Shown: positions 33,372 through 58,785 of the stretch, piece by piece | Position numbering within the stretch: the first letter of the stretch is position 1 | How the letters are laid out: each line of letters opens with the position of its first letter | Source: Escherichia coli | Lineage (GTDB): Bacteria > Pseudomonadota > Gammaproteobacteria > Enterobacterales > Enterobacteriaceae | Direction: 5' to 3' (one strand) | Assembly (NCBI RefSeq): GCF_051903065.1 | Contig: NZ_CP178438.1 | DNA length: 64,000 nt | The notes under the pieces: model-generated | Seen by the model: the letters and a program-made list of their open reading frames with translations, nothing else | What the model was told of the DNA's origin: nothing | Database searches by the model: none | Program-made: the position numbers and the translations under genes

Positions 33372-33973
<602 letters not shown>

Positions 33974-34004
33974 GACAAATGAGCCCATTGGAATAAGTTA
34001 GAAA

Positions 34005-34760: not shown

Positions 34761-37700
34761 GATTTCATCAAACCAACGCGCAGTATCTGGATGATGGTTT
34801 CCACAATACGGTTAACCTGATTCATTCCGGCACCAATTTCCCGGCAGGCCGTAAACAGCAGTGGTAGCAGACTTGTCTTAACGACTTTCTCAATGTCCTG
34901 GGGGTTCAGGGAGTTTTCTGCCACCGCTCTAACGATAATGCTGTCCACTTCAAAAGCCAGCTTCGTCCACTTATCCTGCACCTGAACGTCTTTTACCACA
35001 AAAACCTCAGGTAGCTCTTTTTTAAATACACCGTAATACGCCTGAGCATGCTTGTTTACCGCCAGTGCATCCGGGATATCGCTGAGCTTACGGGCTTCAA
35101 CCTGTTCTTCAAACTCACGGAATAAGAGGTACTGCTTAAGTGGATGGTCGAACAGTTTTTCAGCCTCTTCGATTGCCATACGCAGGAGTCTGGAAAAGGC
35201 CTCCTGAGCATACGGATCATCACGCAGCTCCTGCTCAATCATCTTCGTCACACGGGTTTTAATGATGTCGGTTTCATTGCGGGTTTTATTGTTGTCCCAC
35301 TCTTCGGGCTTTTCGCTCTTACCCATTTTACCGACTTCATACACGCCATCCGGTTCACGAACCTCAACGCCGGTGACATGCTTATCCAGCAGTTTTTTCA
35401 CCTGCTCGGCGTAGTCGTCATAATTGACCTGCTCTCCACTGACCTGCATCGCCCACTGGCGCAGGCTGGACATCTGTTTTACGGTTTCTTTATAGAGGTT
35501 TCGGTCTTGTTCCGTAAAGCTCTTGTCGGTGAAGAAGGTGGCGGACTGCAGTGCCACTTTCAGGCATCCGGCAAAGGCCGTTAACGCCTCGAAGAAATCA
35601 TCACGGGTTTTCTGATGGATATCGACCATCTCTCCGTCACGTTCTTCCATTTTAGGCACCAGTACCGCACGTAACTGCTCAGTATCATTTTTGTTTTTGA
35701 CACCAGCAAATATGGCCCACAGCTGGTTATACAGATGCGGCAGGCGCTTGTATTCAGAGCTCATGGCGCTGTACAGCCCGTCAATATCTTTGATGTCGTA
35801 TCCGCCCTGAGTTCGGGAGGCGAGGTCCTGATATTTGCCGATAGTCGTGTCCAGCTCAGCCAGAATACCGCGATAATCAATCAGCAGACCGAACTTTTTT
35901 AGTGGATGCAGTCGGTTCACCCGCGCAATCGCCTGGATAAGGTTGTGGGACTTAAGCGGCTTGTCGATATACAGCACGGTATTCTTCGGCTCATCAAACC
36001 CGGTGAGCAGTTTATCAACGACTATCAGCAATTTGAGCTTCTCATCGGTATCGAAACGACTGATGATATTGCGGGTATACACAGACTCATCCTGCGTGCC
36101 GACGTTATCTTTCCACCATTTCGTCACTTCCGGCAGTTTGCTTTCATCCACCTCAGTATTCCCTTCCCGGGTATCCGGCGGGCTGATAACTACAGCTGAC
36201 TCAAACAACCCGGCTTCATCAAGATACTTTTTATATTTGATGGCGGAAATCTTGCTGTCGCAGGCAAGCTGGCCTTTCAGCCCCTCATCAATATTCTTCG
36301 AGAAGTGCGTGGCGATATCGAGTGCGATCAGACGGATGCGATCATCTGCACTATAAACCTCACCTTTACGGGCATATTTACGCTTAAGGTCGGCTTTTTG
36401 CGCTTCGCTTAACCCATCGGTAATACGATCAAACCAGGCATCTATTGCCCGATCGTTAACCTCAAGGTCGGGAATACGTTCTTCATACAGCAAAGGTGTA
36501 ACGGCTTTATCTTCTACCGCTCGCTGCATGGTATAAGCGTGGACAATCGGTCCGAATTTATTGGTGGTCTTATCTTCTTTTAGCAATGGCGTACCAGTAA
36601 ATGCTACAAAGGCGGCGTTCGGCAGTGCCAGTTTCATTCGCACATGGTTCTCACCACCCTGGCTACGGTGTCCTTCATCAATCAGAACGATGATATCGGG
36701 GCTGGTATTGACGCATTCAGGAAGTTTTGTCGCTGAATTAAATTTCTGGATTAGGGTGAAAATGATGCGTTCTTTACCGGAGCCAATCTGTTTCGCCAGC
36801 ATCTGCCCGGATGTCGCCATTGCATTGGCTTTGTCTTTTTTCCCGGCCAACTCGCCGCCGGATGCAAAGGTACTGCTGAGCTGTTCTTCAAGATCGATAC
36901 GGTCCGTCACCACCACGATACGACACCGCTTCAGGCTGTCATGAAGGATCAGCGCCTTGCTGAGGAACACCATGGTGTACGATTTGCCAGAGCCGGTGGT
37001 ATGCCAGATAACACCACCTTCCCTGCCCCCATCGGGTCTGCGGGTACTGATGCGTTCCAGCAGTCTTTTAATCCCGAACACCTGCTGATAGCGGGCAACA
37101 ATTTTTCCGGTCTTTTTATCAAACAGGGTGAAGAAGCGGGTCATCTCCAGCAGACGTTCCGGCGAAAGCAGACTGATGAGCAGCTTATCCTGCCCGCTGA
37201 CAGCCAGTTCCCCCCCGGCGATTAACTGCTGATACCAGTTGAGATCGCCAACAGGACGATGCTCAAATAACGCATCAATTTGTTCAGTCGATAAAGGATG
37301 GTTGCGCAGGGCATACATCTGCGCATCGGTAATATCCTCTTCGCGCCATGCCGCCCAGAATTTCATTGGCGTATGGCATGTACCGTAGCGCCCGTCATGA
37401 CCGTTAATCGAAAGTAATAACTGGCTGTAGACAAACAGCTGCGGGATTTCATCGTTGAACTGGTTGCGGATACTCTGGGATATCCCCTCGTCAATGGTTG
37501 GCCCTTTCTTGCCATGACCAGCCGGGCTTTTCGCTTCAATAACAGCCAGCGGGATACCATTAACAAAGCAGACAATATCTGGCCTCCGGGTTTCAACACC
37601 ACCTGACCGCAATACCGTAAATTCTTCAGTAAAATGGAACTGGTTATTTTCCGGATGTTCCCAGTCGATCAGCGCAATGGTGGGGTTGACCTTCTTGCCA

Positions 37701-38044
37701 TCGACAAACTCCGTGACGGCGATACCGTAGAGCAGATGGTTATACATCCGCTCATTGGCTTTGAGCAGCCCTTCATTCAGCGCCGGAGAACAGACCTGTG
37801 ATATCAGGTTATCCAGTGCTTTTTCCGATAACTGGCAGGTTTTGCCACCCGCCATAAAGGAACGCTTCGACAGCTCTTCACGCAGAACCGGACGCAGCAC
37901 CACCTCATCCTGTTTATAGCCCCGGTAATCCATAATCTGTTTCGGAGATAAAAACGCCCAGCCGAGGCTGGTCAGTAACGTCAGTGCCGGAATTTTGGCG
38001 CTGTATTCTTCCTGGAATTTTGGCGTGTACGTCTGGTTCATCAT
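34757..38044 (-). CDS. hsdR: type I restriction enzyme R subunit
   Basis: 1095-aa ORF MMNQTYTPKFQEEYSAKIPALTLLTSLGWAF; helicase motifs HTTGSGKSYTMVF and VLIDEGHRSQ; operon with hsdM and hsdS. Confidence 0.9.
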   Translation of the reverse strand: MMNQTYTPKFQEEYSAKIPALTLLTSLGWAFLSPKQIMDYRGYKQDEVVLRPVLREELSKRSFMAGGKTCQLSEKALDNLISQVCSPALNEGLLKANERMYNHLLYGIAVTEFVDGKKVNPTIALIDWEHPENNQFHFTEEFTVLRSGGVETRRPDIVCFVNGIPLAVIEAKSPAGHGKKGPTIDEGISQSIRNQFNDEIPQLFVYSQLLLSINGHDGRYGTCHTPMKFWAAWREEDITDAQMYALRNHPLSTEQIDALFEHRPVGDLNWYQQLIAGGELAVSGQDKLLISLLSPERLLEMTRFFTLFDKKTGKIVARYQQVFGIKRLLERISTRRPDGGREGGVIWHTTGSGKSYTMVFLSKALILHDSLKRCRIVVVTDRIDLEEQLSSTFASGGELAGKKDKANAMATSGQMLAKQIGSGKERIIFTLIQKFNSATKLPECVNTSPDIIVLIDEGHRSQGGENHVRMKLALPNAAFVAFTGTPLLKEDKTTNKFGPIVHAYTMQRAVEDKAVTPLLYEERIPDLEVNDRAIDAWFDRITDGLSEAQKADLKRKYARKGEVYSADDRIRLIALDIATHFSKNIDEGLKGQLACDSKISAIKYKKYLDEAGLFESAVVISPPDTREGNTEVDESKLPEVTKWWKDNVGTQDESVYTRNIISRFDTDEKLKLLIVVDKLLTGFDEPKNTVLYIDKPLKSHNLIQAIARVNRLHPLKKFGLLIDYRGILAELDTTIGKYQDLASRTQGGYDIKDIDGLYSAMSSEYKRLPHLYNQLWAIFAGVKNKNDTEQLRAVLVPKMEERDGEMVDIHQKTRDDFFEALTAFAGCLKVALQSATFFTDKSFTEQDRNLYKETVKQMSSLRQWAMQVSGEQVNYDDYAEQVKKLLDKHVTGVEVREPDGVYEVGKMGKSEKPEEWDNNKTRNETDIIKTRVTKMIEQELRDDPYAQEAFSRLLRMAIEEAEKLFDHPLKQYLLFREFEEQVEARKLSDIPDALAVNKHAQAYYGVFKKELPEVFVVKDVQVQDKWTKLAFEVDSIIVRAVAENSLNPQDIEKVVKTSLLPLLFTACREIGAGMNQVNRIVETIIQILRVGLMKS

Positions 38045-38093
38045 TAATCCTTTTCTTTCTGGCGCTACTCGCTACTGGTCACATGAAGATTCA

Positions 38094-38777
38094 TCAATGC
38101 AGACAGCACCTCTTAAATTTTTTACCGCTGCCACACGGACACGGGTCATTTCGCCCGGGCATGTTTTCTGCCCCCTTCACTGGAACAGGCCGGGATGATG
38201 CCTCTGACATTCTCACTGACAACCAGTACTGATAAAGTGCCAGTGCAGCAGGCTGAATAAGGGAAATACTTTTCTCAAACTGCTCTCCGGTCATTTTCTC
38301 AAGTACAGGAAAATTCTTCTCCACGCCATGAAGAGCGATCACTTCCAGAGAAGGCCGTAACTCACCGGGAAGACCAGACCAGTCATCCAGTGACTTTCCT
38401 TTCATATAACCAAAACACCACTCTTCCACAATGGTATATTTTTCCCCCTTTACCTCACGCTCATTGAAAATCGGTTCAAACTGTTCAGGGGCCTCATACA
38501 GGCAGCCAGCGATATCGTTCATATGCTGAAAACACAGCCCCACAAAACGCGTCATCTCTTTTTCGGTGGTCCAGCGAGGGTGGTAATCACCTCGCCCCCA
38601 GATAGCACTGAGCCAGGTATTAGGGGAAATCGTATTCGGGCCAGAGACAATCGCTGTCAGAAAGCCATCCAGCTCAGAGAAACAGAGCACAGAATCATCA
38701 TTGCCGTATTTCAGCAACACCTCTTCCAGCCAGTCGATTTCCCGGTCAATCAGCGGCCCGCTTTTCGTCAGTTTCAT
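38094..38777 (-). CDS. YecA-like UPF0149 / SEC-C motif protein, paralogue of chromosomal yecA, inside the hsd operon
   Basis: 227-aa ORF MKLTKSGPLIDREIDWLEEVLLKYG... aligns along its length with YecA (20434-21099), including [11 protein letters not shown] and the terminal [21 protein letters not shown]; start overlaps hsdS stop, 49 bp before hsdR. Confidence 0.85.
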   Translation of the reverse strand: MKLTKSGPLIDREIDWLEEVLLKYGNDDSVLCFSELDGFLTAIVSGPNTISPNTWLSAIWGRGDYHPRWTTEKEMTRFVGLCFQHMNDIAGCLYEAPEQFEPIFNEREVKGEKYTIVEEWCFGYMKGKSLDDWSGLPGELRPSLEVIALHGVEKNFPVLEKMTGEQFEKSISLIQPAALALYQYWLSVRMSEASSRPVPVKGAENMPGRNDPCPCGSGKKFKRCCLH

Positions 38778-40012
38778 TCGGCAACCGCCTCATCGACCTT
38801 AACACGACGTTTGCCAGTCAGTAGCTGTTGCATCAGGGCTTTTTTCTCATCTCTCAGGCAGGCGAGTTTTTTCTCCAGCGTGGAGATTTCGGCATCGGCG
38901 ACGGACAGGACGGCGGCGATTTTTTGTTGTTCTCTTATACTGGGTAAGTCTAGTTCAAACTCTTTAACCATTCCGGCGTTTAGGTTGGACTGTGTACCTT
39001 GCTGGCCTTGTAGTTTTATTTTTTCTTTTAATGATGTAAGATAGAAATATAAAAACTCATAATTTAAACAATCTTTTGGTCTAATACCCAAGATTGCCTG
39101 CGAAGATGTTAAATTTACAGCAGCAATGCTGCATTCACCTATAGAAGCATACATAGCATAAAGAACCGAGTTTTTTGGATATATTCTTGCGGATGAACTG
39201 TTCAATCCTAATTCAGTCAGATATTTTTCAGTTGTAGCAATCCACTTTCCATTAGATGTCATATCAGAAATAGATACCCATGGGATATTCCCGCCATAAT
39301 ACTCTTCAACCGTTGATTTCGGAGTACCTCCACTGTTCATATCGGCTATCGCACCCAGTTTTACTCTCTTCCACTCCCCACTAAACCTCACCCCATTCTC
39401 ATCCAGCAAGCGTTTCTTCCCGGTAAGTAATTGCTGCATCAGGGCTTTTTTCTGCTGCTGACTATTGGCGAGCAGCTTTTCCGTCACTGAAATCGCGTTA
39501 TCCCAGGTTGACAAGATTTTGGCTATTTTCTTTTGTTCCGCCAGTGGGGGGAGTAATACAGGAAAACCGCAAACATCATCACGTGTAATATTAGGGTCTT
39601 TACGACTACTTGCCGCAAATTTCTTCCATAATTTTACATTCCCGTTTAAGTAATTCAGGATATATGCTGGTTCTGCTTTATCACGATCGAGTATAAGACC
39701 GGATAATGCTTGGTTTATTGCTGCCGGTATAGTGAGAAGTCCAGTTCTTCCGATCTGGTTAAAGCCTCCATACATCGCTACTAAAACAGTACCAACAGGA
39801 AATACAGAGCAAGATGTTTCTAAAAGGGCTGTGTCAGTAATTTTCTCATCAGTTGAGATAATTTCACCGTTATTTAGGTCTAATGTCTTTACCCATGGAG
39901 TACCAGCAGTAGAAAAATAACGCTCTCCCTCAGCCCTCAGCGGAGTAGATCCAGATTTAATTTTTGCTATGTCCGATAATTTGACATGTCTCCAGCCAGG
40001 TTTGAGCTTCAT
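38774..40012 (-). CDS. hsdS: type I restriction-modification specificity subunit
   Basis: 412-aa ORF with two target-recognition halves and conserved HsdS core LLTGK(K/R)RL; overlaps hsdM stop. Confidence 0.88.
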   Translation of the reverse strand: MKLKPGWRHVKLSDIAKIKSGSTPLRAEGERYFSTAGTPWVKTLDLNNGEIISTDEKITDTALLETSCSVFPVGTVLVAMYGGFNQIGRTGLLTIPAAINQALSGLILDRDKAEPAYILNYLNGNVKLWKKFAASSRKDPNITRDDVCGFPVLLPPLAEQKKIAKILSTWDNAISVTEKLLANSQQQKKALMQQLLTGKKRLLDENGVRFSGEWKRVKLGAIADMNSGGTPKSTVEEYYGGNIPWVSISDMTSNGKWIATTEKYLTELGLNSSSARIYPKNSVLYAMYASIGECSIAAVNLTSSQAILGIRPKDCLNYEFLYFYLTSLKEKIKLQGQQGTQSNLNAGMVKEFELDLPSIREQQKIAAVLSVADAEISTLEKKLACLRDEKKALMQQLLTGKRRVKVDEAVAE

Positions 40013-41565
40013 AAGCTATCCTCTTGCATACTGAAGTTTTCTCTTTCACCATAACCCAACTCCTTCAGATAACCCGCCATCTCTGTTTCGAGTTTTGACA
40101 GTTCCACTTTCAATTGCTCACGTTCGGCACGCACAGCCAGCAAGTCAATCTCGTCTTCTTCCTCAAAGGTATCGACATAGCGCGGAATATTGAGGTTGTA
40201 ATCGTTGTCCTGAATTTCCTTCAGGCTGGCGAGATAGGCGTATTTCTCGACGTTATCGCCATCACGGTAGGTCTTGACGATTTTCTTAATGTTTTCTTCG
40301 CTAAGCTGGTTCTGGTTTTTACCTGCCTTGAATTCACGGCTGGCATCGATAAACAGCACCTTATCATCAACTTTCTGCTTTTTGAAAATCAGAATCGCAG
40401 CCGGAATCCCCGTACCGTAGAACAGTTTTTCCGGCAGACCAATTACCGCATCCAGCAAATTTTCGTCGATCAGTTTCTGGCGAATTTTACCTTCGCTGGA
40501 GCCACGGAAAAGCACACCGTGTGGCACAACTACGCCCATACGGCCAGTTCCCGGTTTCAGGGTTTCGATCATATGCGAGATAAAAGCGTAATCTCCTTTA
40601 GTCTTCGGCGGTACACCGCGACGAAAACGGCCAAACTTATCGTTCTCAGCCTCGTCATGGCCCCACTTATCCAGGCTGAACGGTGGGTTAGCGGTCACGA
40701 TATCAAACAGCATCAGGTCGCCATTTTTATCGAGCAGTTTCGGGTTACGAATGGTATCGCCCCACTCGATTTTATGGTTGTCTTCGCCGTGCAGGAACAT
40801 GTTCATTTTCGCCAGCGACCACGTGGAGCCAATCGCTTCCTGACCAAACAACGCATAATTACGGCTGTTATGTCCGGAGACAATTTTACGTCCGCACTTC
40901 ATCAATAACGAACCAGAGCCGCAGGCCGGATCGCAGATGGTATCACCCGGTTGCGGATCAAGCAGTTCAGCAATCAGGTCTGAAACTTCTGGTGGGGTAT
41001 AGAATTCCCCGGCTTTCTGCCCACCGCTGGCGGCAAAGTTTTTGATCAGATATTCGTAGGCATTACCGATAACGTCCAGCGTACCTACACGGCTTGGCTT
41101 CAGGTTGAGATCTTCACCGGCGAAGTCTTCCAGCAACTGACGCAGGATGGTGTTCTTCTGTTTTTCTTCACCCAAGCGGTCAGTGTTAAACGAAATATCC
41201 TGGAACACGCTTTTCCCGGCATCTTTCAGTTTGGTTCCGTTGGCTTCTTCGATTGCATGCAGAGCCTGATCGATACGCTCACCGTTACCCGGCTCATGGC
41301 GGCGTTCGTACAGCGCATAAAAGCTGGCACTTTTTGGCAGTACAAAACGCTCGTTGGCCATCATCGCTTCAATCAGTTCCGGCGCATCGCCATACTGTTC
41401 TTTGTATTCGTCATAGTGATCCTGCCAGACATCTGAAATGTACTTGAGGAACAGCATGGTAAGGATAAAGTCTTTATAGGTATCAGCACTGATGGTGCCA
41501 CGGAACGTATCACACGCGGCCCACAGGGCTTTGTTGATCGTGTCCTGACTGATTTTGTCGTTCAT
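40009..41565 (-). CDS. hsdM: type I restriction-modification DNA methyltransferase subunit (N6-adenine)
   Basis: 518-aa ORF MNDKISQDTINKALWAACDTFRG; motif I DPACGSGSLL; motif IV NPPF in TANPPFSLDKWG. Confidence 0.92.
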   Translation of the reverse strand: MNDKISQDTINKALWAACDTFRGTISADTYKDFILTMLFLKYISDVWQDHYDEYKEQYGDAPELIEAMMANERFVLPKSASFYALYERRHEPGNGERIDQALHAIEEANGTKLKDAGKSVFQDISFNTDRLGEEKQKNTILRQLLEDFAGEDLNLKPSRVGTLDVIGNAYEYLIKNFAASGGQKAGEFYTPPEVSDLIAELLDPQPGDTICDPACGSGSLLMKCGRKIVSGHNSRNYALFGQEAIGSTWSLAKMNMFLHGEDNHKIEWGDTIRNPKLLDKNGDLMLFDIVTANPPFSLDKWGHDEAENDKFGRFRRGVPPKTKGDYAFISHMIETLKPGTGRMGVVVPHGVLFRGSSEGKIRQKLIDENLLDAVIGLPEKLFYGTGIPAAILIFKKQKVDDKVLFIDASREFKAGKNQNQLSEENIKKIVKTYRDGDNVEKYAYLASLKEIQDNDYNLNIPRYVDTFEEEDEIDLLAVRAEREQLKVELSKLETEMAGYLKELGYGERENFSMQEDSL

Positions 41566-41868
41566 GAATCATCCTGGTCTGAAGAAAAAGCTAGCGATGC
41601 AGGGCTTTGCATCTTAAAAATTGCGGTAAATGATACCGTAAGATGCCTCCCCTGACACGCCAATATCGCAGCATTCAGGTTTGCATCATCCCCGTAATAT
41701 CGACATGAGACAGACTGACACAACCTGGCTCGTCACTCGCTAAAAACCAATTATCTTAGTAAGATAGCATCCATATTAGCCATGGTGTAAAACTGCCGTT
41801 GGGGTAATGATGATCCATATATCACCCGTTCTGGTGTGTGGAGCTGACATGATCCATAATCGGCAACG

Positions 41869-46364: not shown

Positions 46365-48058
46365 GAACACAGCAAATAATGCTAATAATGCACTGAACAT
46401 TCTTCCTGAAGCAGCAAACGGCTTTGTTGAATAAATCGAACTTTTGCTGAGTTGAAGGATCAGATCACGTATCTTCCCGACAACGCAGACCGTTCCGTGG
46501 CAAAGCAAAAGTTCAAAATCACCAACTGGCCCACCTACAATAAAGCCCTCATCAACCGTGGCTCCATAACTTTCTGGCTGGATGATGAAGCTATTCAGGC
46601 CTGGTATGAGTCAGCAACACCTTCTTCACGAGGCAGACCTCAGCGCTATTCTGACCTTGCCATCACGACTGTGCTGGTCATTAAACGCGTATTCAGGCTG
46701 ACCCTGCGCGCTGCGCAGGGCTTTATTGATTCCATTTTTTCTCTGATGAACGTTCCGCTACGCTGCCCGGATTACAGCTGTGTCAGCAGGCGGGCAAAGT
46801 CGGTTAATGTCAGTTTCAAAACGCCCACCCGGGGTGAAATCGCACACCTGGTAATTGATTCCACCGGGCTGAAGGTCTTCGGTGAAGGCGAGTGGAAAGT
46901 CAAAAAGCATGGCCAGGAACGCCGCCGTATCTGGCGTAAGCTGCATCTCGCCGTTGACAGTAAAACACATGAAATCATCTGCGCTGACCTGTCGCTGAAC
47001 AACGTTACGGACTCAGAGGCCTTCCCCGGGTTAATCCGGCAAACCCACCGGAAAATCAGGTCAGCCGCCGCCGATGGCGCTTACGATACCCGGCTATGTC
47101 ACGATGAACTGCGGCGTAAGAAAATCAGCGCGCTTATCCCTCCCCGAAAAGGTGCGGGTTACTGGCCCGGTGAATATGCAGACCGTAACCGTGCAGTGGC
47201 TAATCAGCGAATGACCGGGAGTAATGCGCGGTGGAAATGGACAACAGATTACAACCGTCGCTCGATAGCGGAAACGGCGATGTACCGGGTAAAACAGCTG
47301 TTCGGGGGTTCACTGACACTGCGTGACTACGATGGTCAGGTTGCAGAGGCTATGGCCCTGGTACGAGCGCTGAACAAAATGACGAAAGCAGGTATGCCTG
47401 AAAGCGTGCGTATTGCCTGAAAACACAACCCGCTACGGGGGAGACTTACCCGAAATCTGATTTATTCAACAAAGCCGCAGCAAACACAGCTGTAGACAAC
47501 GATGAAAAATATCTGTCCTTTGCATTAGTTCTCGCTATCACGATTATGGACAACTTAGTAAAGCTCATCGGCACAGATGGCTTCGTACTTTATACCTACA
47601 CCCTGCAGGACACGGCTACTGCTCGTGCTGTTTTTAATGAATTAGCCAGGCGTCTCAAAAATTTCAATCGTCAGGAGGAGGTCTACACCACCGATTCCCT
47701 CACCTTTCGAATGAAATACATTTACGGTGTTACCCTGTTCGAACATGATAGTAAATCTATCCTTAACCTCTTTGATAAGAAGGGTTATCCGGTATTGAGT
47801 GAATCAGGAGAACCCGGTTCTCTTGATGATATGTATCTTGACATTCAAGCCCGATTACATGGCGGCTACGCCTCAAAAAAGTTTCTTCATTTACATGAAC
47901 ATTGTCTGTTATCTGCACACGTTACCCCGTCTGTGGAAAAGACGCAACGCGGTATCCTGATTAAAGTAGGCAGGAAACTCGTTTCCTTTATCCATGTAGA
48001 TGATGAATCACACAAAACCGATATTTTCAAATCTGTAGTAAATGTTATTAAATCTTGA
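46354..48058 (+). pseudogene. small ORF interrupted by IS903 after codon 22; the 3' part persists as a 170-aa ORF (47546-48058)
   Basis: ATG at 46354 (MVTKNTANNANNALNILPEAAN) runs into the IS; removing the IS and one TSD copy restores an in-frame ORF of about 212 codons ending 48058. Confidence 0.65.
46420..47476 (+). mobile_element. IS903-like element (IS5 family, 1057 bp; transposase ORF 46452-47420) with 9-bp target-site duplication
   Basis: Terminal inverted repeats ggctttgttgaataaatcg / cgatttattcaacaaagcc; 322-aa DDE transposase ORF; TSD gcagcaaac at 46411-46419 and 47477-47485. Confidence 0.9.
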
Positions 48059-48066
48059 TTCTTTAT

Positions 48067-48094
48067 GCCGGGACACAGCTCCCGGCATTTTTTC
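48067..48094 (+). terminator. hairpin plus T-run between the interrupted ORF and the polymerase gene (terminator or attenuator)
   Basis: Stem gccggga/tcccggc followed by attttttc, 11 bp before the RBS and ATG at 48105. Confidence 0.45.
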
Positions 48095-48104
48095 GGAGTT
48101 AACT

Positions 48105-50705
48105 ATGAGCAATAATTTGCAGGACATCCTCGCTGCCGCCTCGGGGTATCAGTCCGTGACTTCAGAGCCAGCGTTCAATCGTAAAAGACCTAAAACGCTT
48201 GATGATTATCCTGTGATACCACCTGCATCAAAAAAAGTATCTGTTATTTCAAGTGACCTGACACTCCATATCGGTTTTGATACCGAATATGTTTTCAACC
48301 CTGAAACACGACAGAATGATATTCTGTCATATCAGAGTTATGTTGTCTTACCCGATAATACAGGTATATCGAACATTATCTATCCACCTGACTCACAGAA
48401 AAAATCCCGGCTGTCTTTTAAGGAATTTCTCTGTCAAACGATTACACCGCTTCTTGAAACGGGTGTGATTACAAAATGGCCCGGTATTATTAATATATAT
48501 GCGCATTTCATTCGTGCGGATATCGCCTCCTTTGCCAATTTCTGGTCAGACTACAAAATTCTTCTGAAAGGAATACGCGGTACTGTCAGCAGCTTCAAAA
48601 ATCGTTACGGTATCGATTTTGATGAACAGCAGGAACGTCGCGTAAAGACTGAACAGATAATGTTTGACAAACGAACTTCCCCTCCGCGTTGCAGTAACGT
48701 AGCTTTCATCGATACACTGCTTATCACTCCCGGGGGTATGGGTCTGGCTGAATGTGGTGAATTACTGGGTCTTCCCAAACTCACCATTCCTGCACCTTAT
48801 TCCATAACCAATATGCGTGAATATCTTCTGGGCGACAGAGCAGGGTTTGAAGCCTATGCTCTGCGGGATGCCGAGATTGCGGTTCGTTATGCTTTACAGG
48901 TTCGCAATTTTTGCGCCCGGGAGCTGATGATTGATCGTGTCCCCGCCACCATCGGGGCGATGGCAGTTTCACGGTTCACCAAAACACTTAAAGAAAACAA
49001 TATGTCTCCTGAAGTCTGCCTTGGGACACACATTAAAACCCGTGAACTCTGGCTCACGGAGAAACAGGCATTCCGGACGATTAAAAACCCCGCCAGTGTT
49101 CCTTCAAGAGAGTTGTTTGAAACGTTCCCGATCAACTGTTACCACGGCGGACGCAATGAGTGTTTTATGATGGGGGTTACACCGTCTGATCACTGGTATG
49201 ACTACGATCTGGCTGGAGCGTATACCACCGGGCTATTAGATATCCTCACACCCGATTACGGGAACATCCGCCTCAGTAAAAATCCGGACGATTACTGTGG
49301 GCATGTAATGGGATTTGCGCTTGTCACATTTCGGTTCCCGGAATCAGTTCCCTATCCCAGCCTGCCGGTTCGGACCGATCAATATGGGTTATTCTTTCCA
49401 TTAAGTGGCGAATCATGGGCAACGGCACCTGAAATCGAACTTGCTCTGTCGCTCGGGGCAGAGATGACGATCCATAATGGGATCATCGTCCCCTGGATCT
49501 GTGACACCTCCCCACATAACAGCGAATCAACATCGGTGTTTCTTCCCTTTGTTCAACAGGTCCGTGAGAACCGTAATCGCCATATTAAAGGTTCTCTGGA
49601 GGAGAAATTCTGGAAAGAAATTGGCAACTCGCTTTATGGCAAACTTGCTCAGGGCCTTCGCGCCAAAACCGCCTTTGATACTGCCCGTGGATTAAACAGA
49701 TCCCTCCCACCATCATCGGTTACTCAGCCATTCTTTGCTGCGCATGTGACGGGATTTATCCGCGCCGTTGTCGGGGAACTCATGAATGCTTTGCCTTCTG
49801 ATTCATCGGTTGTCAGCGTCACAACCGATGGTTTTTTGACAAATTGCCCACTTGACAAGATAAACATGAGCGGTCCACTGTCTTCCCGCTTCCAGTCGCT
49901 GTGCGATATTGTTGATCCGGGTTCATCAATGTTGACATGTAAGCATGAGGTCAGCCAGCTTATCGCCATGAAAACCCGGGGGCAGTTAACCTATAGAGCT
50001 ATTCAGGGAAAACCTGTTGTTCATGCCAGGGCTGGCGTCAAACCTCCTGCCGATATTCCACGCAGTGACTATAACGACTATATGGTAGATCTTTACCTTA
50101 ATCGTTTACCCGGTCAGACGTTATCCCGAAGTACGTTGATATCAACGCGTGAGATGTGGCTCTCGGAAAGCGATCTGGTATCCCGGGAACAGGATATCCG
50201 TCTTAATCTGGAATTCGATTTCAAACGCCAGCCCGTACAGCCCGCCATGAATGAAGGGCATTTACTGATGTTTTCCCGCCCGTGGGATAATATGGAAGAG
50301 GCTCTGCAGCAACGCTCTCTTTTCGACGACTGGCGGCAAACGCATACACTGAAGACCCTGGCTGACTGGGATGACTGGTGTGATTTTCTCTATTGCCGGA
50401 CGGTGTTTTCTGATATGAAACTAAAAGTCGGAAGCAAACGTAGTGATGATATTTTAGTCAGACTATTTCTCCGGGCGCTGACTCAGTGCCAATGGGGGCT
50501 GATGCTGAAAGATAAAAAAAGTTATTCCTGTAAAGAGGTTGCTGAATGGCTGACGTCAGAAGGCTATTCAGTAACGGTGACTGATGTAAAAAATGCGGTA
50601 AGAGCAAAAATACCCCAAATGAAATTTAGTTCTGTAACACCGCGAATGAAGTCACTGATGGATATCATAGCCCGTAAATATCCGACATTCTGTCTTCCAG
50701 TCTGA
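48105..50705 (+). CDS. family-B DNA polymerase with piPolB-like motifs (pipolin primer-independent PolB)
   Basis: Exo I in LHIGFDTEYVF; YALRD (Exo III-like); KTRG in AMKTRGQLTY; motif B KEIGNSLYGKLAQ; motif C SVTTDGFL; RBS ggag before ATG 48105. Confidence 0.8.
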   Translation: MSNNLQDILAAASGYQSVTSEPAFNRKRPKTLDDYPVIPPASKKVSVISSDLTLHIGFDTEYVFNPETRQNDILSYQSYVVLPDNTGISNIIYPPDSQKKSRLSFKEFLCQTITPLLETGVITKWPGIINIYAHFIRADIASFANFWSDYKILLKGIRGTVSSFKNRYGIDFDEQQERRVKTEQIMFDKRTSPPRCSNVAFIDTLLITPGGMGLAECGELLGLPKLTIPAPYSITNMREYLLGDRAGFEAYALRDAEIAVRYALQVRNFCARELMIDRVPATIGAMAVSRFTKTLKENNMSPEVCLGTHIKTRELWLTEKQAFRTIKNPASVPSRELFETFPINCYHGGRNECFMMGVTPSDHWYDYDLAGAYTTGLLDILTPDYGNIRLSKNPDDYCGHVMGFALVTFRFPESVPYPSLPVRTDQYGLFFPLSGESWATAPEIELALSLGAEMTIHNGIIVPWICDTSPHNSESTSVFLPFVQQVRENRNRHIKGSLEEKFWKEIGNSLYGKLAQGLRAKTAFDTARGLNRSLPPSSVTQPFFAAHVTGFIRAVVGELMNALPSDSSVVSVTTDGFLTNCPLDKINMSGPLSSRFQSLCDIVDPGSSMLTCKHEVSQLIAMKTRGQLTYRAIQGKPVVHARAGVKPPADIPRSDYNDYMVDLYLNRLPGQTLSRSTLISTREMWLSESDLVSREQDIRLNLEFDFKRQPVQPAMNEGHLLMFSRPWDNMEEALQQRSLFDDWRQTHTLKTLADWDDWCDFLYCRTVFSDMKLKVGSKRSDDILVRLFLRALTQCQWGLMLKDKKSYSCKEVAEWLTSEGYSVTVTDVKNAVRAKIPQMKFSSVTPRMKSLMDIIARKYPTFCLPV

Positions 50706-51080: not shown

Positions 51081-51299
51081 AGAACCACCTTTATGTTATT
51101 TCAACTAATATGATGTTCTCCGATATTATGAAAATATTAATCATCATTGTAATTGCTGATAACCTCTCTAACCTTCGGATCTTACGTTCCCCCCTGCCTC
51201 TCCGACTTGATGGCAAAAGTGCATGGTCAAATATGCAGCAAAAACATGTCATGTACAGGTCAGGATAATAATTATCACCCTGAACTTAAAAATACACAT

Positions 51300-51410
51300 G
51301 GACAGGATGAGTCCACATGTTATTCGATGATTCCAGCAATGTTTTAATATATTGATAATTAATGAGTTAATTTTTTTCTCCGTCACAGTAAAAGTGGACT
51401 CATCCTGTCC
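51300..51410. promoter_or_regulatory. perfect 17-bp inverted repeat pair, candidate operator in the divergent promoter region upstream of the WYL regulator
   Basis: ggacaggatgagtccac at 51300-51316 and its reverse complement gtggactcatcctgtcc at 51394-51410, spaced by 77 bp of AT-rich DNA, 50 bp before the ATG at 51460. Confidence 0.5.
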
Positions 51411-51459
51411 GTTACTTTGCTGAAAATATCCTCTTCGCTGGCATTAACCGGATAAACGA

Positions 51460-52362
51460 ATGGGTAAGCACGATAAACTTGGATATCGACTCGGATTGAT
51501 ATTAACTCGCCTGAACAATGGTGAGTCACTAGCCGTCCGGGAGTTATCTGAGGAATTTAACGTTTGCGAAAAAACTATCCGTCGCGATCTTACTCAGCGC
51601 CTGTCCTATCTTAATCTGATTCGACAAAATGGTCGCTATCGCCTGTCTGACGGTGTTCTCGGTCAACGCAGCAATGCTGATTTACGTCATTTCACGCGCA
51701 TCCTGGGTATTGAAGGGCTGTTCCCTCGCTGGGATGACAGACTACTGAGTATTTTGTTAGGTAACACGAAAAATAACCCGTTTCTGATAAAACAACGTCC
51801 ATACGAAAACTGCGGATCATTCATGTCAATTCTGAATGTATTATCCGATGCCATCCTGTCACAGAAGAAAGTAAATTTTAATTACAAAGATAAAGAGTTT
51901 CGGGCTGTTGAGCCATACAGACTGGTTAATGACAACGGATTGTGGTATCTCGCTGCCGCCCATGACAGTACATTAAAAAGCTTTGTTATCTCATCTGTCA
52001 AAGACGTTTGCATGAGTAATATCTCTTTCAGGATAATCCCCGAAATTAATGAAAAAATAGAAAAGACAGATGGTATCTGGTATAGCGAAGACCTTATCGA
52101 AGTTCTCATTTCAGTTTCCGCACATGTTGCTCCGTGGTTTACCCACCGTCATCTATTGCCAGGACAGGAAATAATTCATACTTCCCGGTCTGGCGATTTA
52201 CTGGTGATATCACGTGTAACACACACAGATCAGATAATGCCTTTAATGAAATACTGGATACCGGATGTCGAAGTAATACAACCGGCCTCAATCCGTCAAC
52301 AACTTGCTGAAGATATACAATCCGCACTGAAACGTTACACCCAGCCAAGTAACGCCCCGTAA
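51460..52362 (+). CDS. HTH plus WYL-domain transcriptional regulator (BrxR/CapW-like)
   Basis: 300-aa ORF; N-terminal [37 protein letters not shown]; WYL motif in [13 protein letters not shown]. Confidence 0.75.
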
Positions 52363-52423
52363 TGACACGGATAATATAATTTTCATTAAGTGCTATTTTT
52401 ATAAGCTAAAAAATGGAGTTACC

Positions 52424-53242
52424 ATGAAAAAATGCCCGGTTCTTCTTGTTGTATCAGGGTTTCTGACCGAAAATGATATATCATGGTTTAACCGAATTAA
52501 AGCAGGGTGTGGCCTTGATGTCAGATACTATAAATGGGAATCGGCAAATCTACTATCCATATTAAGTTCTGACATAGCGAACAAGTGGGGGTTATATACT
52601 CTCTTCCCCCTGAGAACATCTCCTTTATTGTCATCAATCTCCATTCCATTTAAAGCGCGTCAGGCCTGGTATAATGCAACGAAAGCAGCAGTTAATAACA
52701 GAGAAAAATTAGCACACGTAATAAACGAGATATACGTTAAAGAAAAGCGTAATGTGATCATAATGGGTCATTCTTTAGGGACTCGATTAATAAACAATAC
52801 ATTACCCTATATAAAAAATGATAATATTCTCTTAACAATCTCTATGGCCGGAGCCACCCCAATAACAAGTTATACAGAGAACATAATGAAAATGGCTTAC
52901 GGTTCAAAAATGGGGCATTTAAATATCTACAGTGAACATGATAAAGTACTTAACACGATATACCCTCTCGTAGAGTCAGTAACGCCAATTGGGGTTCGGG
53001 AGGTGAGATTCAGACCTGCTCGGGTGATCAACTGGAAGTGGGATATTGGTCACACTGAATATATTACTTCAAACAGGATTGATTCATTAACACACTGGTT
53101 AAATGTTACCTGTGCCGATTTAGCTGATCCAGCCGTAGAAATCACTGACGACGACATGAAATCATTTCATGATATTATTAATCTTGCGAATTTAACATGT
53201 CATAAAAACACTGTCGCACCTAAATTAATATCATTTGAGTAG
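52424..53242 (+). CDS. alpha/beta-hydrolase-fold serine hydrolase (esterase/lipase-like), function unknown
   Basis: 272-aa ORF; nucleophile elbow GHSLG in VIIMGHSLGTRL; candidate triad Asp in SEHDKV and His in DIGHTEY; 61 bp downstream of the WYL gene. Confidence 0.65.
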   Translation: MKKCPVLLVVSGFLTENDISWFNRIKAGCGLDVRYYKWESANLLSILSSDIANKWGLYTLFPLRTSPLLSSISIPFKARQAWYNATKAAVNNREKLAHVINEIYVKEKRNVIIMGHSLGTRLINNTLPYIKNDNILLTISMAGATPITSYTENIMKMAYGSKMGHLNIYSEHDKVLNTIYPLVESVTPIGVREVRFRPARVINWKWDIGHTEYITSNRIDSLTHWLNVTCADLADPAVEITDDDMKSFHDIINLANLTCHKNTVAPKLISFE

Positions 53243-53317
53243 TTAAAAAAAGGTTGCATTATAACGGGAGTGTATATTTACTCCCGTTAAGTTTCATATT
53301 TTATAGAATTGATATGG

Positions 53318-54085
53318 GGTGATGCTGCCAACTTACTGATTTAGTGTATGATGGTGTTTTTGAGGTGCTCCAGTGGCTTCTGTTTCTATCAGCTGTCCCT
53401 CCTGTTCAGCTACTGAAGGCGTGGTGCGTAACGGTAAAAGTACTGCCGGACATCAGCGCTATCTCTGCTCTCACTGCCGTAAAACATGGCAACTGCAGTT
53501 CACTTACACCGCTTCTCAACCCGGTACGCACCAGAAAATCATTGATATGGCCATGAATGGCGTTGGATGCCGGGCAACCGCCCGCATTATGAGCGTTGGC
53601 CTCAACACGATTTTCCGCCATTTAAAAAACTCAGGCCGCAGTCGGTAACCTCGCGCATACAGCCGGGCAGTGACGTCATCGTCTGCGCGGAAATGGACGA
53701 ACAGTGGGGCTATGTCGGGGCTAAATCGCGCCAGCGCTGGCTGTTTTACGCGTATGACAGGCTCCGGAAGACGGTTGTTGCGCACGTATTCGGTGAACGC
53801 ACTATGGCGACGCTGGGGCGTCTTATGAGCCTGCTGTCACCCTTTGACGTGGTGATATGGATGACGGATGGCTGGCCGCTGTATGAATCCCGCCTGAAGG
53901 GAAAGCTGCACGTAATCAGCAAGCGATATACGCAGCGAATTGAGCGGCATAACCTGAATCTGAGGCAGCACCTGGCACGGCTGGGACGGAAGTCGCTGTC
54001 GTTCTCAAAATCGGTGGAGCTGCATGACAAAGTCATCGGGCATTATCTGAACATAAAACACTATCAATAAGTTGGAGTCATTACC
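53318..54085 (+). mobile_element. insAB: IS1 copy (768 bp; insA 53373-53648, insB frame 53567-54070) with 9-bp target-site duplication
   Basis: IS1 terminal repeats; TSD ttgatatgg at 53309-53317 and 54086-54094; InsA differs from copy 1 at a few residues. Confidence 0.95.
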
Positions 54086-54100
54086 TTGATATGGATTCGA

Positions 54101-54328
54101 TTAAAAATTTCGTCTAACTCGTTCCCTTATCAAACTTGCCAGCCTTACCCTTCCAGGTGAAATAGTTTCCGTTACAGTTTCAACTCTCAACAAATCACGC
54201 TGTCCGGTTCGGCGACTGACCGCGAAACGCTGACATATATCATTAACCGATACCGTATTACCGGTATACAGTTGAAGTAATATCCAGCACAGCCTTTCTG
54301 CGATCCTTTCACCGCGAGTTTTATACAT
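54101..54328 (-). CDS. small HTH protein (75 aa) resembling the N-terminal HTH of WYL/DeoR-type regulators
   Basis: ERLCWILLQLYTGNTVSVNDICQRFAVSRRTGQRDL parallels the HTH of the 51460 regulator; natural stop 7 bp from the IS1 TSD. Confidence 0.4.
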   Translation of the reverse strand: MYKTRGERIAERLCWILLQLYTGNTVSVNDICQRFAVSRRTGQRDLLRVETVTETISPGRVRLASLIRERVRRNF

Positions 54329-54629
54329 CTGTAAAACCTTCAGTTATCGTCAACGATGACATAGCCCACCTCAAAACCCACATAACTGACTGTATTCATG
54401 AACATTTATTACCGGTGTAATACTGTCGTTGGGGTAATGGATTAACCGTTATCACCCTGCTACAGGAGAATGCTCCATAGGGGGCAAAAACCACGAGGGA
54501 TCTGAGATCCCCCGTGTCTGCACTTGTTTATGCGAACAGCCAGGAAAAAGAGACATCATCTCCATGCTGTGATGCACGCCACATGCAGTAGATTACAAAG
54601 CCGCCCGCTTTCTTCCTGTTCATAACGGG

Positions 54630-55064
54630 TCAACAACTTTCCACAGTTACCGTTACCCGGTAAATCCCCATAGAGAGATACTCCATAAAATTACGCTCCC
54701 ACAGGGACCAGAGTTCATTCCTCTCTGCTGCCAGTGAAATATCCCCAATCAGATAATGGAATACATAATTCCCCGACCAGCAAAAATCAATTTCTTTTTC
54801 CAGCTCAGGGTAGACACGCCCCATATAACTAAAATCTGTGACATAATCAAAATACCATTCATTATTCTTACGGATAAACCGTATTTCAACGGGATGAAAG
54901 CCCCCGGATTCTGCACTGTAGTCCGGATCACGGAAATTAATAACCACTGCCTCAGTTATTTTTTGTAAAACCTGATTTGCCAGAAGAGTAGTAATATGCT
55001 GCTGAAATTCTTTAGTAACAGGCAGAGTTAATCCTGCCTGTTTTAAGGCATATTGGGTTTGCAT
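54630..55064 (-). CDS. hypothetical protein (144 aa)
   Basis: ORF MQTQYALKQAGLTLPVTKEFQQHITTLLANQ; co-oriented with the integrase-proximal small genes. Confidence 0.5.
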   Translation of the reverse strand: MQTQYALKQAGLTLPVTKEFQQHITTLLANQVLQKITEAVVINFRDPDYSAESGGFHPVEIRFIRKNNEWYFDYVTDFSYMGRVYPELEKEIDFCWSGNYVFHYLIGDISLAAERNELWSLWERNFMEYLSMGIYRVTVTVESC

Positions 55065-55136
55065 AATAAATTTTCCTTTAGAAAGTAAATAGCGGTGTGT
55101 GGTGATTTCTGGTTGTATAACAGTGCAGGAAATAAA

Positions 55137-55670
55137 TTAATCCTCTGTAATCTTTTCCTGGCTACTGATCGTATTAAGTTTATTCAACCGCTCCCTCCAG
55201 TCCGGGTATAATACATGAGTAAATAACTTCTCTGGATGTGCCTCCAGCAGACATATATCCGGGGAGCGTAAAACAGCAGCCAGAAAACCTGCATTGTTGG
55301 CGCTTGCCCCTTTGAATAGCGGCCTGAATACTCCGGATGAGAAGCCGGTAGCAGGTTGTGTTTCCAGAACGGTTGCAATCTTTGAAAGTGAGATCCAGTC
55401 CTTAGAGAACAACCCTCCACAGCCATTTGCCACCAGACGAAGATAAAGTTCATTGTCCACCTCTGATATCGCCAGTTGCCATGTCAGCATACCACTTGCC
55501 TTAGGACTGATTTTTTCTGCCTGGCCTGTTTCAATGAGCAACTGATAGTCTTTTACATCAGATAATGTTTGTTCATCTGCACTGAGATTTTCATGAATAA
55601 CCTCTGCCTCATTTTTAATCTCCTTCGAAACTGACTCAACATTATTTTTAACTAATTTTGATTTACTCAT
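55137..55670 (-). CDS. hypothetical protein (177 aa)
   Basis: ORF MSKSKLVKNNVESVSKEIKNEAEVIHENLSADEQ; no recognisable motif. Confidence 0.5.
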   Translation of the reverse strand: MSKSKLVKNNVESVSKEIKNEAEVIHENLSADEQTLSDVKDYQLLIETGQAEKISPKASGMLTWQLAISEVDNELYLRLVANGCGGLFSKDWISLSKIATVLETQPATGFSSGVFRPLFKGASANNAGFLAAVLRSPDICLLEAHPEKLFTHVLYPDWRERLNKLNTISSQEKITED

Positions 55671-55695
55671 TTTGCGTTCCTGGTTTTGCTTGTGT

Positions 55696-56067
55696 TTAAT
55701 AGCGTGATTCGGCCATAGAAATTAATAAATCAATACCCTTCAGAGGGCAATCGGGGTGAAATAACAGATAAATACCGTTCCCGTTATCTTCCGTAACAGA
55801 AAGCATCAGGTAATAGTCATCTGTCAGACGGACTACAAATTCTGGATTTGCAATTAACTGATGAATCACATTTAATACCTGCGCTTTAATATCTTCAGGT
55901 ACATCATCGGGCTCGACATATATTAATGTCACCCCGACTTCATCCCAGAAACTCATTGCAGAGTATTCATCTTCAAATGGGAGTACCAGCTCTGTTTTCA
56001 ACAGACTCATTACTGACTCCGGAAGAGATAGTGATGGCAGACTTTGCCAGTTAGCGATAAACTTCAT
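55696..56067 (-). CDS. hypothetical acidic protein (123 aa)
   Basis: ORF MKFIANWQSLPSLSLPESVMSLLKTELVLPFEDEY; Asp/Glu-rich. Confidence 0.5.
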   Translation of the reverse strand: MKFIANWQSLPSLSLPESVMSLLKTELVLPFEDEYSAMSFWDEVGVTLIYVEPDDVPEDIKAQVLNVIHQLIANPEFVVRLTDDYYLMLSVTEDNGNGIYLLFHPDCPLKGIDLLISMAESRY

Positions 56068-56163
56068 TGTTCAATCCTTATAAGTAAAAAACCCCGATAC
56101 AATTAACGTATCGGGGTTTTTATACATGCGCATAACTATTATTTACAGTTATTGGTTTTCTAT

Positions 56164-56436: not shown

Positions 56437-57666
56437 TCACATCTGCTTCGTAGCCGCAGTATTCAGAAGCAGGTCAGTCACTCCCTGCCCTGTCTGACGC
56501 ATACGTTCCGGTGTTAATTTCGCGTAACGTTCTGTACTCTGAATACTGGCATGCGCCAGTTGGGCTTTAACGTCATACAGGCTGAATTGACCACTCGAAA
56601 CCAGTAAAGAGGCAACAGAATGACGTGTGGTGTGAAAACAGACTTCATTCTTGTCTATACCGCACTGTGCCAGTATTTTTTCATATGCCCATCGGGGTTC
56701 CGATATCGGTTTTCCATTATCCTTAATGGCGAACAGATACGGATTACTGCCAACTCGTGGGATAGCATCAATAATCGATAATGCGGCATCGCTTAGATAT
56801 ACCGTCCGACTGCGACCATTTTTTGTATAAGGAATGAACAGAGTACGATTGGCCCGGTCGATATGTTCATGCCTGACATTAAGCATTTCTGATTTGCGTG
56901 TACCGGTTAACAACAACATGGCTATCAATCCCCCGGCAGCTTTGTTGGGATATTGGGTAGCAGCGTCAAGAATGCGCCTGATCTCATCAGCATCAAAAAA
57001 GCGCGTCCGCTGATTATTCTCTTTCAGTAAAGGGATCTTATCGGCTTCATTCTTTTCCAGCACATCCTGTCGCAACGCATAACGCCCCATCGTTTTCAGA
57101 ATAGCAAGGGCTCTGTTACAGGTAGACGGCGCATATTGCTGCCCGTGAATACGCCCCTCCAGCATGTCAAACAGCACCTGTTGTATCTCTCTGGCCCTGA
57201 GATCGCAGTAACGTATCTTTCCCAGACGAGGTTCAATGTATTGCGTGAAACGCTGAACATCCTTATCCCAGGACTTTTTATGGCGCTTGATGAACGGAAC
57301 ATAGGTCTGGTGAAAAAACTCACTAAGCGTTGGCATCGCACGATAATTATCGCGCTCTGCCTTGGGGTCATTTCCAAGTGCAATCGCCTCCTTATGACGG
57401 CGAGCTATCTGGCGAGCTGTCCCCACATCAATTTCAGGGAATCTGCCAATACTGATACTTTTTTTGGTACCGTGGAATGTGTAGCGCAGGAGGAAACGTT
57501 TGTTACCCGTTCGACCTGAGAGACATTTGAGGCCAATAACTTCGGTATCAGATACCTCAAGCTCTGTAGATCGGGTATCTGTGTTTGCCGGAAGGGCTTT
57601 GATGGATGAATTGGTGAATCGGAAGGATTTTTGCATATTTATCCTCATGTATCTGATTGATATCAT
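56437..57666 (-). CDS. tyrosine-type site-specific integrase (P4-like), next to the att/leuZ junction; start may be the internal Met at 57636
   Basis: 409-aa ORF; catalytic motifs LLTGTRKSEM, HTTRHSVASLL and ERYAKL. Confidence 0.88.
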   Translation of the reverse strand: MISIRYMRINMQKSFRFTNSSIKALPANTDTRSTELEVSDTEVIGLKCLSGRTGNKRFLLRYTFHGTKKSISIGRFPEIDVGTARQIARRHKEAIALGNDPKAERDNYRAMPTLSEFFHQTYVPFIKRHKKSWDKDVQRFTQYIEPRLGKIRYCDLRAREIQQVLFDMLEGRIHGQQYAPSTCNRALAILKTMGRYALRQDVLEKNEADKIPLLKENNQRTRFFDADEIRRILDAATQYPNKAAGGLIAMLLLTGTRKSEMLNVRHEHIDRANRTLFIPYTKNGRSRTVYLSDAALSIIDAIPRVGSNPYLFAIKDNGKPISEPRWAYEKILAQCGIDKNEVCFHTTRHSVASLLVSSGQFSLYDVKAQLAHASIQSTERYAKLTPERMRQTGQGVTDLLLNTAATKQM

Positions 57667-57716: not shown

Positions 57717-58457
57717 ATGGAAAAGCTATTAGACGCGTACAAACGGATATTGCAGGAAGTTAACGCCCAGTCATTTAACCTGAATGAGGATAAATACTCA
57801 GGCGTATTTTTACCCGTACCCTTTGAAGAATACTGGCATTCACCGGTAAAAATCATGCTGGTTGGACGTGAAACCGCAGGCTGGAATACGCTGAATGGTA
57901 AGAATACGATATCACGGGTGTTGGGACTTATACCTGACGTTACCATCGGGCAAGTGGTTGAAGAAGCTGTAGATCGTTACAGGAAACATCTTCCGGTACA
58001 AAATTATGGCACCGCCAACCTCAAATCACGTAGCCGCTTCACGCAATATCATTTCAGGCTGGCCCGGGAGCTTAATATCCCTCCTCAGGCTATCGTGTAT
58101 GCCAATCTACTGGCGTGGGATTACGACGGACTGACCCCTCTCAATCGCCCTCAAAATGAAGTGCAGGAAGTTATATTAGCCTCGCTGAAGCTGCTGGCGG
58201 TACAAATTAAACACCTTGAGCCTGATTTCATGATCTTTGCATCCGGAGCCCGGAGAACAGACTACATCATTAAACAGGTGCTTACTGAGCTGGGCGGTTA
58301 TGAGACTTCTTCAGTCATTCCGGGGAAGCTGTGGGAGTTCAAAACAGGTAATACAATCTGTTTCAGAATTGCCCATCCAAGGGCTATGCGCGGACACCAG
58401 AAGTACAGAGATGAGGTGATTGCACGAATTAAGCAACTTTGTACTAAGGGCGGCTAG
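57717..58457 (+). CDS. putative uracil-DNA glycosylase-like protein (assignment tentative)
   Basis: 246-aa ORF; possible UDG-like motifs VGRETAGW and AHPRAM by position only; its 3' part is duplicated at 22940-23364. Confidence 0.45.
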   Translation: MEKLLDAYKRILQEVNAQSFNLNEDKYSGVFLPVPFEEYWHSPVKIMLVGRETAGWNTLNGKNTISRVLGLIPDVTIGQVVEEAVDRYRKHLPVQNYGTANLKSRSRFTQYHFRLARELNIPPQAIVYANLLAWDYDGLTPLNRPQNEVQEVILASLKLLAVQIKHLEPDFMIFASGARRTDYIIKQVLTELGGYETSSVIPGKLWEFKTGNTICFRIAHPRAMRGHQKYRDEVIARIKQLCTKGG

Positions 58458-58629
58458 AGCATTACAACTTGCTCAGCAGGCCCCCCTTCCCGGAAGAGTA
58501 CCGGAAAACAGGCAAAGCGGCCTGGTTCTCTATGCTGGAGGCGACACGTTCAATTCGGCATTGCCAGGCTGTAGATTGCAGCTCATTGCACCCCGTGCGC
58601 ACAGGATATGCACAGGGCGTGAATTGCAT

Positions 58630-58754
58630 GCACAAAAAAACCACCCGAAGGTGGTTTCACGACACTGCTTATTGCTTTGATTATTCTGATGTTTCCCATG
58701 GTACCCGGAGCGGGACTTGAACCCGCACAGCGCGAACGCCGAGGGATTTTAAAT
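58630..58754. repeat. att direct repeat copy 3 (element-borne terminator plus the 3' 56 nt of intact leuZ)
   Basis: Matches copies 1 and 2 through gggattttaaat, after which the intact tRNA continues. Confidence 0.85.
58634..58657 (-). terminator. Rho-independent terminator of the glyW-cysT-leuZ operon (also present in att copies 1 and 2)
   Basis: Minus-strand hairpin aaccacc-ttcg-ggtggtt followed by ttttttt. Confidence 0.75.
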
Positions 58755-58785
58755 CCCTTGTGTCTACCGATTCCACCATCCGGGC
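58699..58785 (-). tRNA. leuZ: tRNA-Leu (UAA anticodon)
   Basis: Reverse complement reads GCCCGGATGGTGGAATCGGTAGACACAAGGGATTTAAAATCCC...CTCCGGGTACCA (87 nt, CCA end). Confidence 0.95.

Follow-up and report, generated by a model that had tools for sequence, protein, structure and literature searches.

A lineage-specific IS1 insertion with an intact 9-bp target duplication in the core of an Escherichia coli pipolin

The window analysed here is a stretch of 64,000 nucleotides of Escherichia coli DNA (contig NZ_CP178438.1 of RefSeq assembly GCF_051903065.1). It carries a complete IS1 between a DUF726 gene and a small convergent gene encoding a helix-turn-helix (HTH) protein (Table 1). The island that hosts this IS1 is recognisable as a chromosomal E. 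coli pipolin, that is, a piPolB island at tRNA-Leu: the piPolB gene, two tyrosine recombinases, direct att repeats and a tRNA junction are present, and the island matches the core gene set described for enterobacterial pipolins (PMC11551731). The three att-like repeats of the tRNA-Leu 3' end suggest a tandem arrangement of a degraded element of ~2.2 kb followed by a pipolin of ~35 kb. The cargo of the pipolin (23940-41566) comprises Hhe (DUF4011), a DUF262 pair, an M48 peptidase and a type I restriction-modification system, and a frameshifted IS5-family element is located at 46498-47420, just upstream of the piPolB region. The pipolin papers, searched for mention of IS1 or DUF726, contained nothing specific on either.

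Table 1. Coordinates of the features of the window and of IS1 events in the pipolins of other strains.
Feature	Position	Strand	Basis or remark
att-like direct repeats	21218-21350, 23532-23662, 58624-58754		
Second full IS1, IS1A type, no target duplication	22172-22939	+	sequence
Truncated IS1 (IS1 positions 1-376), inverted	33598-33973	-	sequence
DNA polymerase type-B family gene (piPolB)	48042-50705		annotation
HTH-WYL-WCX regulator gene, intact	51460-52362	+	ORF, domains
DUF726 / alpha-beta hydrolase gene, GHSLG motif, intact	52424-53242	+	ORF, domains, RefSeq annotation
Terminator-like hairpin after DUF726, 11-bp stem	53262-53289	+	fold energy
Left copy of 9-bp target-site duplication, TTGATATGG	53309-53317	.	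sequence; single copy in empty site
IS1, complete, closest to IS1B type	53318-54085	+	sequence and identity
IS1 left inverted repeat (IRL), GGTGATGCTGCCAACTTACTGAT	53318-53340	+	read directly
insA, 91 aa, GTG start	53373-53648	+	ORF and Pfam
Internal ATTGATATGG in the IS1 copies	53541-53550, 22395-22404, 33741-33750 (-)		
insB' reading frame, DDE transposase domain, open in the window	53567-54070	+	ORF and Pfam
A6C motif for programmed -1 frameshift, TTTAAAAAAC	53621-53630	+	sequence
IS1 right inverted repeat (IRR), reverse complement GGTAATGACTCCAACTTATTGAT	54063-54085	+	read directly
Right copy of 9-bp target-site duplication, TTGATATGG	54086-54094	.	sequence
Convergent 75-aa DeoR-type HTH ORF, natural length	54101-54328	-	ORF, weak HTH_11/DeoR matches
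DUF2787 gene	54630-55064		
Integrase gene	56437-57666		
tRNA-Leu	58699-58785		
L4_E1441_ETEC: IS1B, 8-bp duplication AAAATATC	51423-51430	+	30 bp upstream of WYL
2018-05-5CC, W444: IS1A, duplication GCCTTACCC	54142-54150	-	inside small HTH ORF
ET846: IS1 variant, 9-bp duplication	55177-55185	-	inside 177-aa ORF
T28R type: truncated IS1 fused to flank, no duplication	54093		7 bp from window site; 6 records
E66: deletion-type junction, no duplication	26444/IS1/52754		
2452: deletion-type junction, no duplication	51253/IS1/52848		about a third of sampled rows
23CRST007: deletion-type junction, no duplication	51253/IS1/53123		
600055: deletion-type junction, no duplication	52643/IS1/53089		

The two genes upstream of the IS1 encode a WYL protein with HTH_DeoR, WYL and WCX domains and a putative hydrolase, which matches the DUF726, LCAT and DUF900 models and is named DUF726 domain-containing protein in RefSeq. 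A PADLOC scan for a known defence system combining WYL and DUF726 returned generic WYL models only and gave no match for DUF726, and hence no defence assignment is possible. The hairpin behind the DUF726 gene (-19.8 kcal/mol, z = -3.98) ends 28 bp upstream of the IS1 and is the likely terminator of DUF726. Folding of the sequence between the stop codon of the HTH gene and the IS1 gave no second terminator-like structure (z = +0.57).

The stop codon of the convergent HTH ORF (54101-54103) is located 6 nt beyond the right copy of the duplication. Homologs of this ORF, with lengths of 75-78 amino acids, occur in Citrobacter, Enterobacter, Serratia and Scandinavium and align over their full length with 73-77% identity, so the IS1 did not truncate it. 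The candidate explanation of an ORF shortened by the insertion was accordingly rejected, the stop codon being outside the duplication and present in the empty site, and the homologs being equally long. The ORF is a genuine small gene and no IS1-made stump. It is unannotated in the RefSeq records examined for the locus, and its homologs in the four genera are named DeoR family transcriptional regulator.

Direct reading of the window identified a complete IS1 of 768 bp on the plus strand. It has imperfect inverted repeats of ~23 bp starting with GGTGATG and GGTAATG, the last bases of the element being ATCAATAAGTTGGAGTCATTACC (end of the IRR), and it encodes InsA with a zinc ribbon and an HTH domain (Pfam matches Zn_ribbon_InsA, 2.6e-21, and HTH_Tnp_IS1, 5.1e-30) and a DDE transposase domain (DDE_Tnp_IS1, 2.3e-78) in the insB' frame, which in the window ORFs is -1 relative to insA. 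The A6C slippery motif drives the programmed -1 frameshift of IS1 that yields InsAB'. A 9-bp target-site duplication, a single-copy empty site in relatives and a high nucleotide identity to reference IS1 copies likewise correspond to what is expected for a member of IS1.

The best matches of this copy elsewhere were IS1 copies annotated as IS1B family (99.3-99.6% identity), and its identity to the IS1A-annotated copy at 22172 was 98.7%. When it was used as the query, a 100% identical IS1 was never the best match in any other genome. The ten positions at which it differs from the copy at 22172 are all located at IS1 positions 100-304 (53417-53621 of the window), and IS1 positions 305-768 of the two copies are therefore identical. 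These differences cluster in the insA region, in a mosaic pattern of IS1 variants. A run of G within insB' (53812-53815) reads GGGG in the window and GGG in both near-identical RefSeq genomes, in which the IS1 copy is 767 bp long and annotated as 'frameshifted', whereas the copy of the window has open reading frames; the difference may be an assembly error in the homopolymer or a real mutation that inactivates the copy.

The duplication TTGATATGG is a perfect 9 bp directly outside each end of the IS1, and the probability that a 9-mer would match at the two exact ends by chance is ~4e-6. To represent the empty site a 200-bp query was used from which the IS1 and one copy of the duplication had been removed, and a genome was counted if the query was covered to at least 80% in one piece. 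An empty site with one TTGATATGG and no IS1 was found in 295 of the 5,426 complete E. coli genomes, two of these 295 at 100% identity. The empty site of NCTC9080 (L002) reads tatagaaTTGATATGGattcgatt with a single copy of the 9-mer, and both flanks of the window align onto the same nine bases at positions 6993-7001 of that record. The duplication together with the empty site identifies the event as a simple transposition of IS1 in which the target was cut with a stagger of 9 bp. A sequence-only reading of the window, which had proposed an IS1 with a perfect 9-bp duplication at 53309-54094 and had suggested looking for the uninterrupted locus in related strains, is thus confirmed, with the NCTC9080 site as the decisive evidence; its distances are essentially right as well, the IS1 starting 76 positions after the end of the hydrolase ORF at 53242, with 75 nt lying between the ORF and the IS1 and 66 nt between the ORF and the duplication.

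The target is an AT-rich spacer between the convergent DUF726 and small HTH genes, with a GC content of 32% in the 111 bp around the site, compared to 47% for the window and 53% for the IS1. IS1 was reported to prefer AT-rich targets of 8 or 9 bp, the 9-bp length accounting for 78% of events (PMC10359306), and the AT-rich target and the 9-bp duplication fit this preference. The 9-mer TTGATATGG is also present inside the IS1, within insA, where the identity extends to ten bases (ATTGATATGG) if the preceding A is counted. The a priori chance of such an internal occurrence is ~0.5-1%, and the recurrence is probably a coincidence.

The left and the right IS1 junction were each found in 2 of the 5,426 complete E. 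coli genomes, namely in 23CRST027 and 23CRST031, which belong to one Ecuadorian collection. The window aligned to the chromosome of 23CRST027 (NZ_AP045789.1) with 0 mismatches over 64 kb and a few single-base gaps. Since the junctions are restricted to these two genomes and the empty site is present in 295, the event is best described as a lineage-specific simple transposition. By the same counts the insertion is recent relative to the sampled diversity, as had been proposed from the sequence. The nearest IS1-free relatives diverge by 0.3-0.5% in the 2-kb flanks, and 'recent' therefore means after the split from the sampled relatives, with no date attached. In 23CRST027 IS1 occupies ~37 places, compared to a median of 10-11 in E. 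coli genomes having any IS1, which suggests an expansion of IS1 in the 23CRST027/031 clone.

In IS1-free strains such as NCTC9080 the gene order is WYL, DUF726, the 75-aa HTH ORF (convergent), DUF2787, two hypothetical genes and the integrase. A different gene behind DUF726 in the absence of the IS1 was considered and rejected, as the IS1-free relatives share the gene order of the window. The suggestion that the IS1 had cut off the WYL-hydrolase pair from a partner that once lay downstream is refuted by this identical gene order without the IS1, and it is further countered by the hairpin behind DUF726 and by the opposite strand of everything downstream.

The two further IS1 copies of the island correspond to their earlier description as one copy without duplication and one truncated copy, the latter ending at IS1 position 376. 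The full copy at 22172-22939 is flanked by catgacttc and gccgcttca, and its right junction had a contiguous match only in 23CRST027 and 23CRST031, which implies a second lineage-specific, IS1-associated rearrangement. On one side this copy adjoins a truncated restriction endonuclease gene (flank 21531-22178), and on the other a 723-bp segment (22940-23662) that duplicates 58033-58754 with 97% identity, a region made up of the 3' part of a 246-aa gene and the att/tRNA-Leu repeat. The junction of the truncated copy with the M48 peptidase gene was present in 196 genomes, which marks it as an old copy. An IS3-family fragment (33373-33606) abuts this truncated IS1.

It is classical for IS1 to promote deletions of adjacent DNA, and for IS copies to recombine with each other. 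If the direct copies at 22172 and 53318 recombined, ~31 kb would be lost, and with it the defence cargo, piPolB, WYL and DUF726. Recombination of the 53318 copy with the fragment at 33598, which is in inverted orientation, would invert the segment between the two, and the 53318 copy could itself promote adjacent deletions. The view that these copies are substrates for rearrangement is made plausible by the IS1-associated deletions of this region in other strains.

At least eight further independent IS1 events were identified in the ~4-kb pipolin core of other strains, three of them simple insertions and five deletion junctions (Table 1), so that the copy of the window brings the total to at least nine independent events and the number of simple insertions to four. 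Three core events are located within ~60 bp of one another in empty-site coordinates, and the IS1 shared by 2018-05-5CC and W444 is ~50 bp from the insertion site of the window. The 2452 and 23CRST007 types have the 51253 junction in common, differ on the other side and appear to derive from one insertion by successive adjacent deletions, in agreement with PMC11708052. Published causes of missing IS1 duplications (PMC11708052) match the junctions without duplication in these other pipolins. An 11-nt similarity between the target of the window and the IS1 flank of 600055 was rejected as chance after direct inspection (8/11).

As a rough control, the coverage of three 2,064-bp segments was compared among complete E. 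coli genomes at a threshold of at least 80%, the results being counts of genomes and not of independent events. The segment with WYL and DUF726 (51254-53317) was covered in 184 of 304 matching genomes (61%), the piPolB segment (48400-50463) in 286 of 294 (97%) and the segment on the DUF2787 side (54095-56158) in 319 of 335 (95%). Most of the loss of WYL-DUF726 stems from one widespread IS1-associated deletion (51253/IS1/52848). An IS3-family element within WYL-DUF726 was observed in ETEC1730, ETEC1703, ETEC1717, ETEC1718, PEC422, EC596 and others, that is, in several porcine ETEC and other strains, and represents a further independent IS hit on this module. The coverage data are compatible both with the preference of IS1 for AT-rich targets and with selection against the module, and cannot distinguish the two. 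If selection and not target preference were involved, the alpha/beta-hydrolase under WYL control would be cargo that is costly or toxic to its hosts, such as a defence effector, and that they repeatedly discard. We consider it rather doubtful that the insertion of the window is an early snapshot of a recurrent erosion of WYL-DUF726 by IS1 in E. coli pipolins.

Taken together, the insertion was very probably produced by ordinary transposition of an IS1B-type element into a spacer of the pipolin, with neutral or near-neutral consequences. In this process an IS1B-type element entered the chromosomal pipolin, the transposase making a 9-bp staggered cut at TTGATATGG and gap repair duplicating the nine bases. 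The AT-rich spacer is located past the DUF726 hairpin and beyond the stop codon of the HTH gene, and consequently no reading frame was broken. The insertion was most likely neutral or nearly so. Transcription of DUF726 should end at the hairpin before the IS1, and the sole plausible effect in cis would be twofold: transcripts of the HTH gene are now 777 bp further from this hairpin, and any rightward transcription out of the IS1 would run antisense to this small gene.

The frequent IS1 events in the WYL-DUF726 module of other strains may leave room for selection, and the insertion could have been retained through a changed expression of a neighbour, for example by uncoupling the HTH gene from the shared hairpin, by antisense read-out from the IS1 or by damping WYL-DUF726. 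The repeated hits and deletions of this module by IS1 and IS3 in other pipolins and its lower coverage (61% of matching genomes, compared to 95-97% for the flanking segments) agree with such a role, as does the present position of the IS1 between the stop codon of the HTH gene and the hairpin. However, the WYL and DUF726 frames and the region upstream of them are untouched, the IS1 is located past the hairpin of DUF726, only two near-identical genomes have the insertion, and its position is explained by the AT-rich target preference alone. An adaptive insertion is therefore regarded as improbable.

Two other accounts concern the origin of the arrangement itself. In a Tn9-like composite the IS1 copies at 22172 and 53318 would have moved the 30-kb segment between them as a unit, with Hhe, the DUF262 pair, the type I restriction-modification system, recombinases, piPolB, WYL and DUF726 as the cargo, and two full copies in the same orientation, 31 kb apart, do bracket this cargo, both sets of junctions being contiguous only in 23CRST027/031. 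We nevertheless rejected this account as highly improbable, as the copy at 53318 has its own perfect duplication and is thus a single-element insertion, and the outer flanks are unmatched (catgacttc and ttgatatgg); moreover, the segment between the copies is in the pipolin order of IS1-free strains and the two copies differ at ten positions. The misplacement of a repeat copy during assembly is conceivable in this strain, in which IS1 is highly repeated (~37 copies), and the window does differ from its RefSeq relatives by single-base indels typical of long-read assemblies, but two separate complete assemblies have identical junctions, and when nine bases present once in the empty site are precisely duplicated, this is the mark of real transposition and not of misassembly. 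We regard such an artefact as exceedingly unlikely.

It is textbook behaviour of IS1 to insert into AT-rich intergenic DNA with a 9-bp duplication. The event described here is of this ordinary, already-known kind, and the insertion is already annotated in public genomes. The insertion itself is of little consequence. It broke no gene and separated no partners. It provides a documented pair of empty and filled sites, it can serve as a clean marker of lineage by which to recognise the 23CRST027/031 clone, and it illustrates that IS1, with ~37 copies in the host strain, is reshaping the pipolin. The preferential loss of WYL-DUF726, mostly by IS1-associated deletions, indicates that the function of this module could merit a phylogeny-aware study.

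Compared to the IS1A and IS1B elements of E. coli, the copy at 53318 has the same length, repeats, genes, frameshift motif, 9-bp duplication and AT-rich target, and nothing essential is distinct; it is a minor sequence variant. Relative to IS1-promoted adjacent deletions it represents the stage of the simple insertion, with both flanks intact and no deletion yet. The resemblance to Tn9-type composites consists in two direct full-length IS1 copies that bracket defence genes and piPolB, whereas in the window there is no single duplication shared by the outer ends and the cargo occupies its native place within the pipolin. With E. coli pipolins the window shares piPolB, two tyrosine recombinases, WYL, DUF2787, att repeats and the tRNA-Leu junction, and the finding reported here is a secondary IS1 insertion in the core module, distinct from the pipolin itself.
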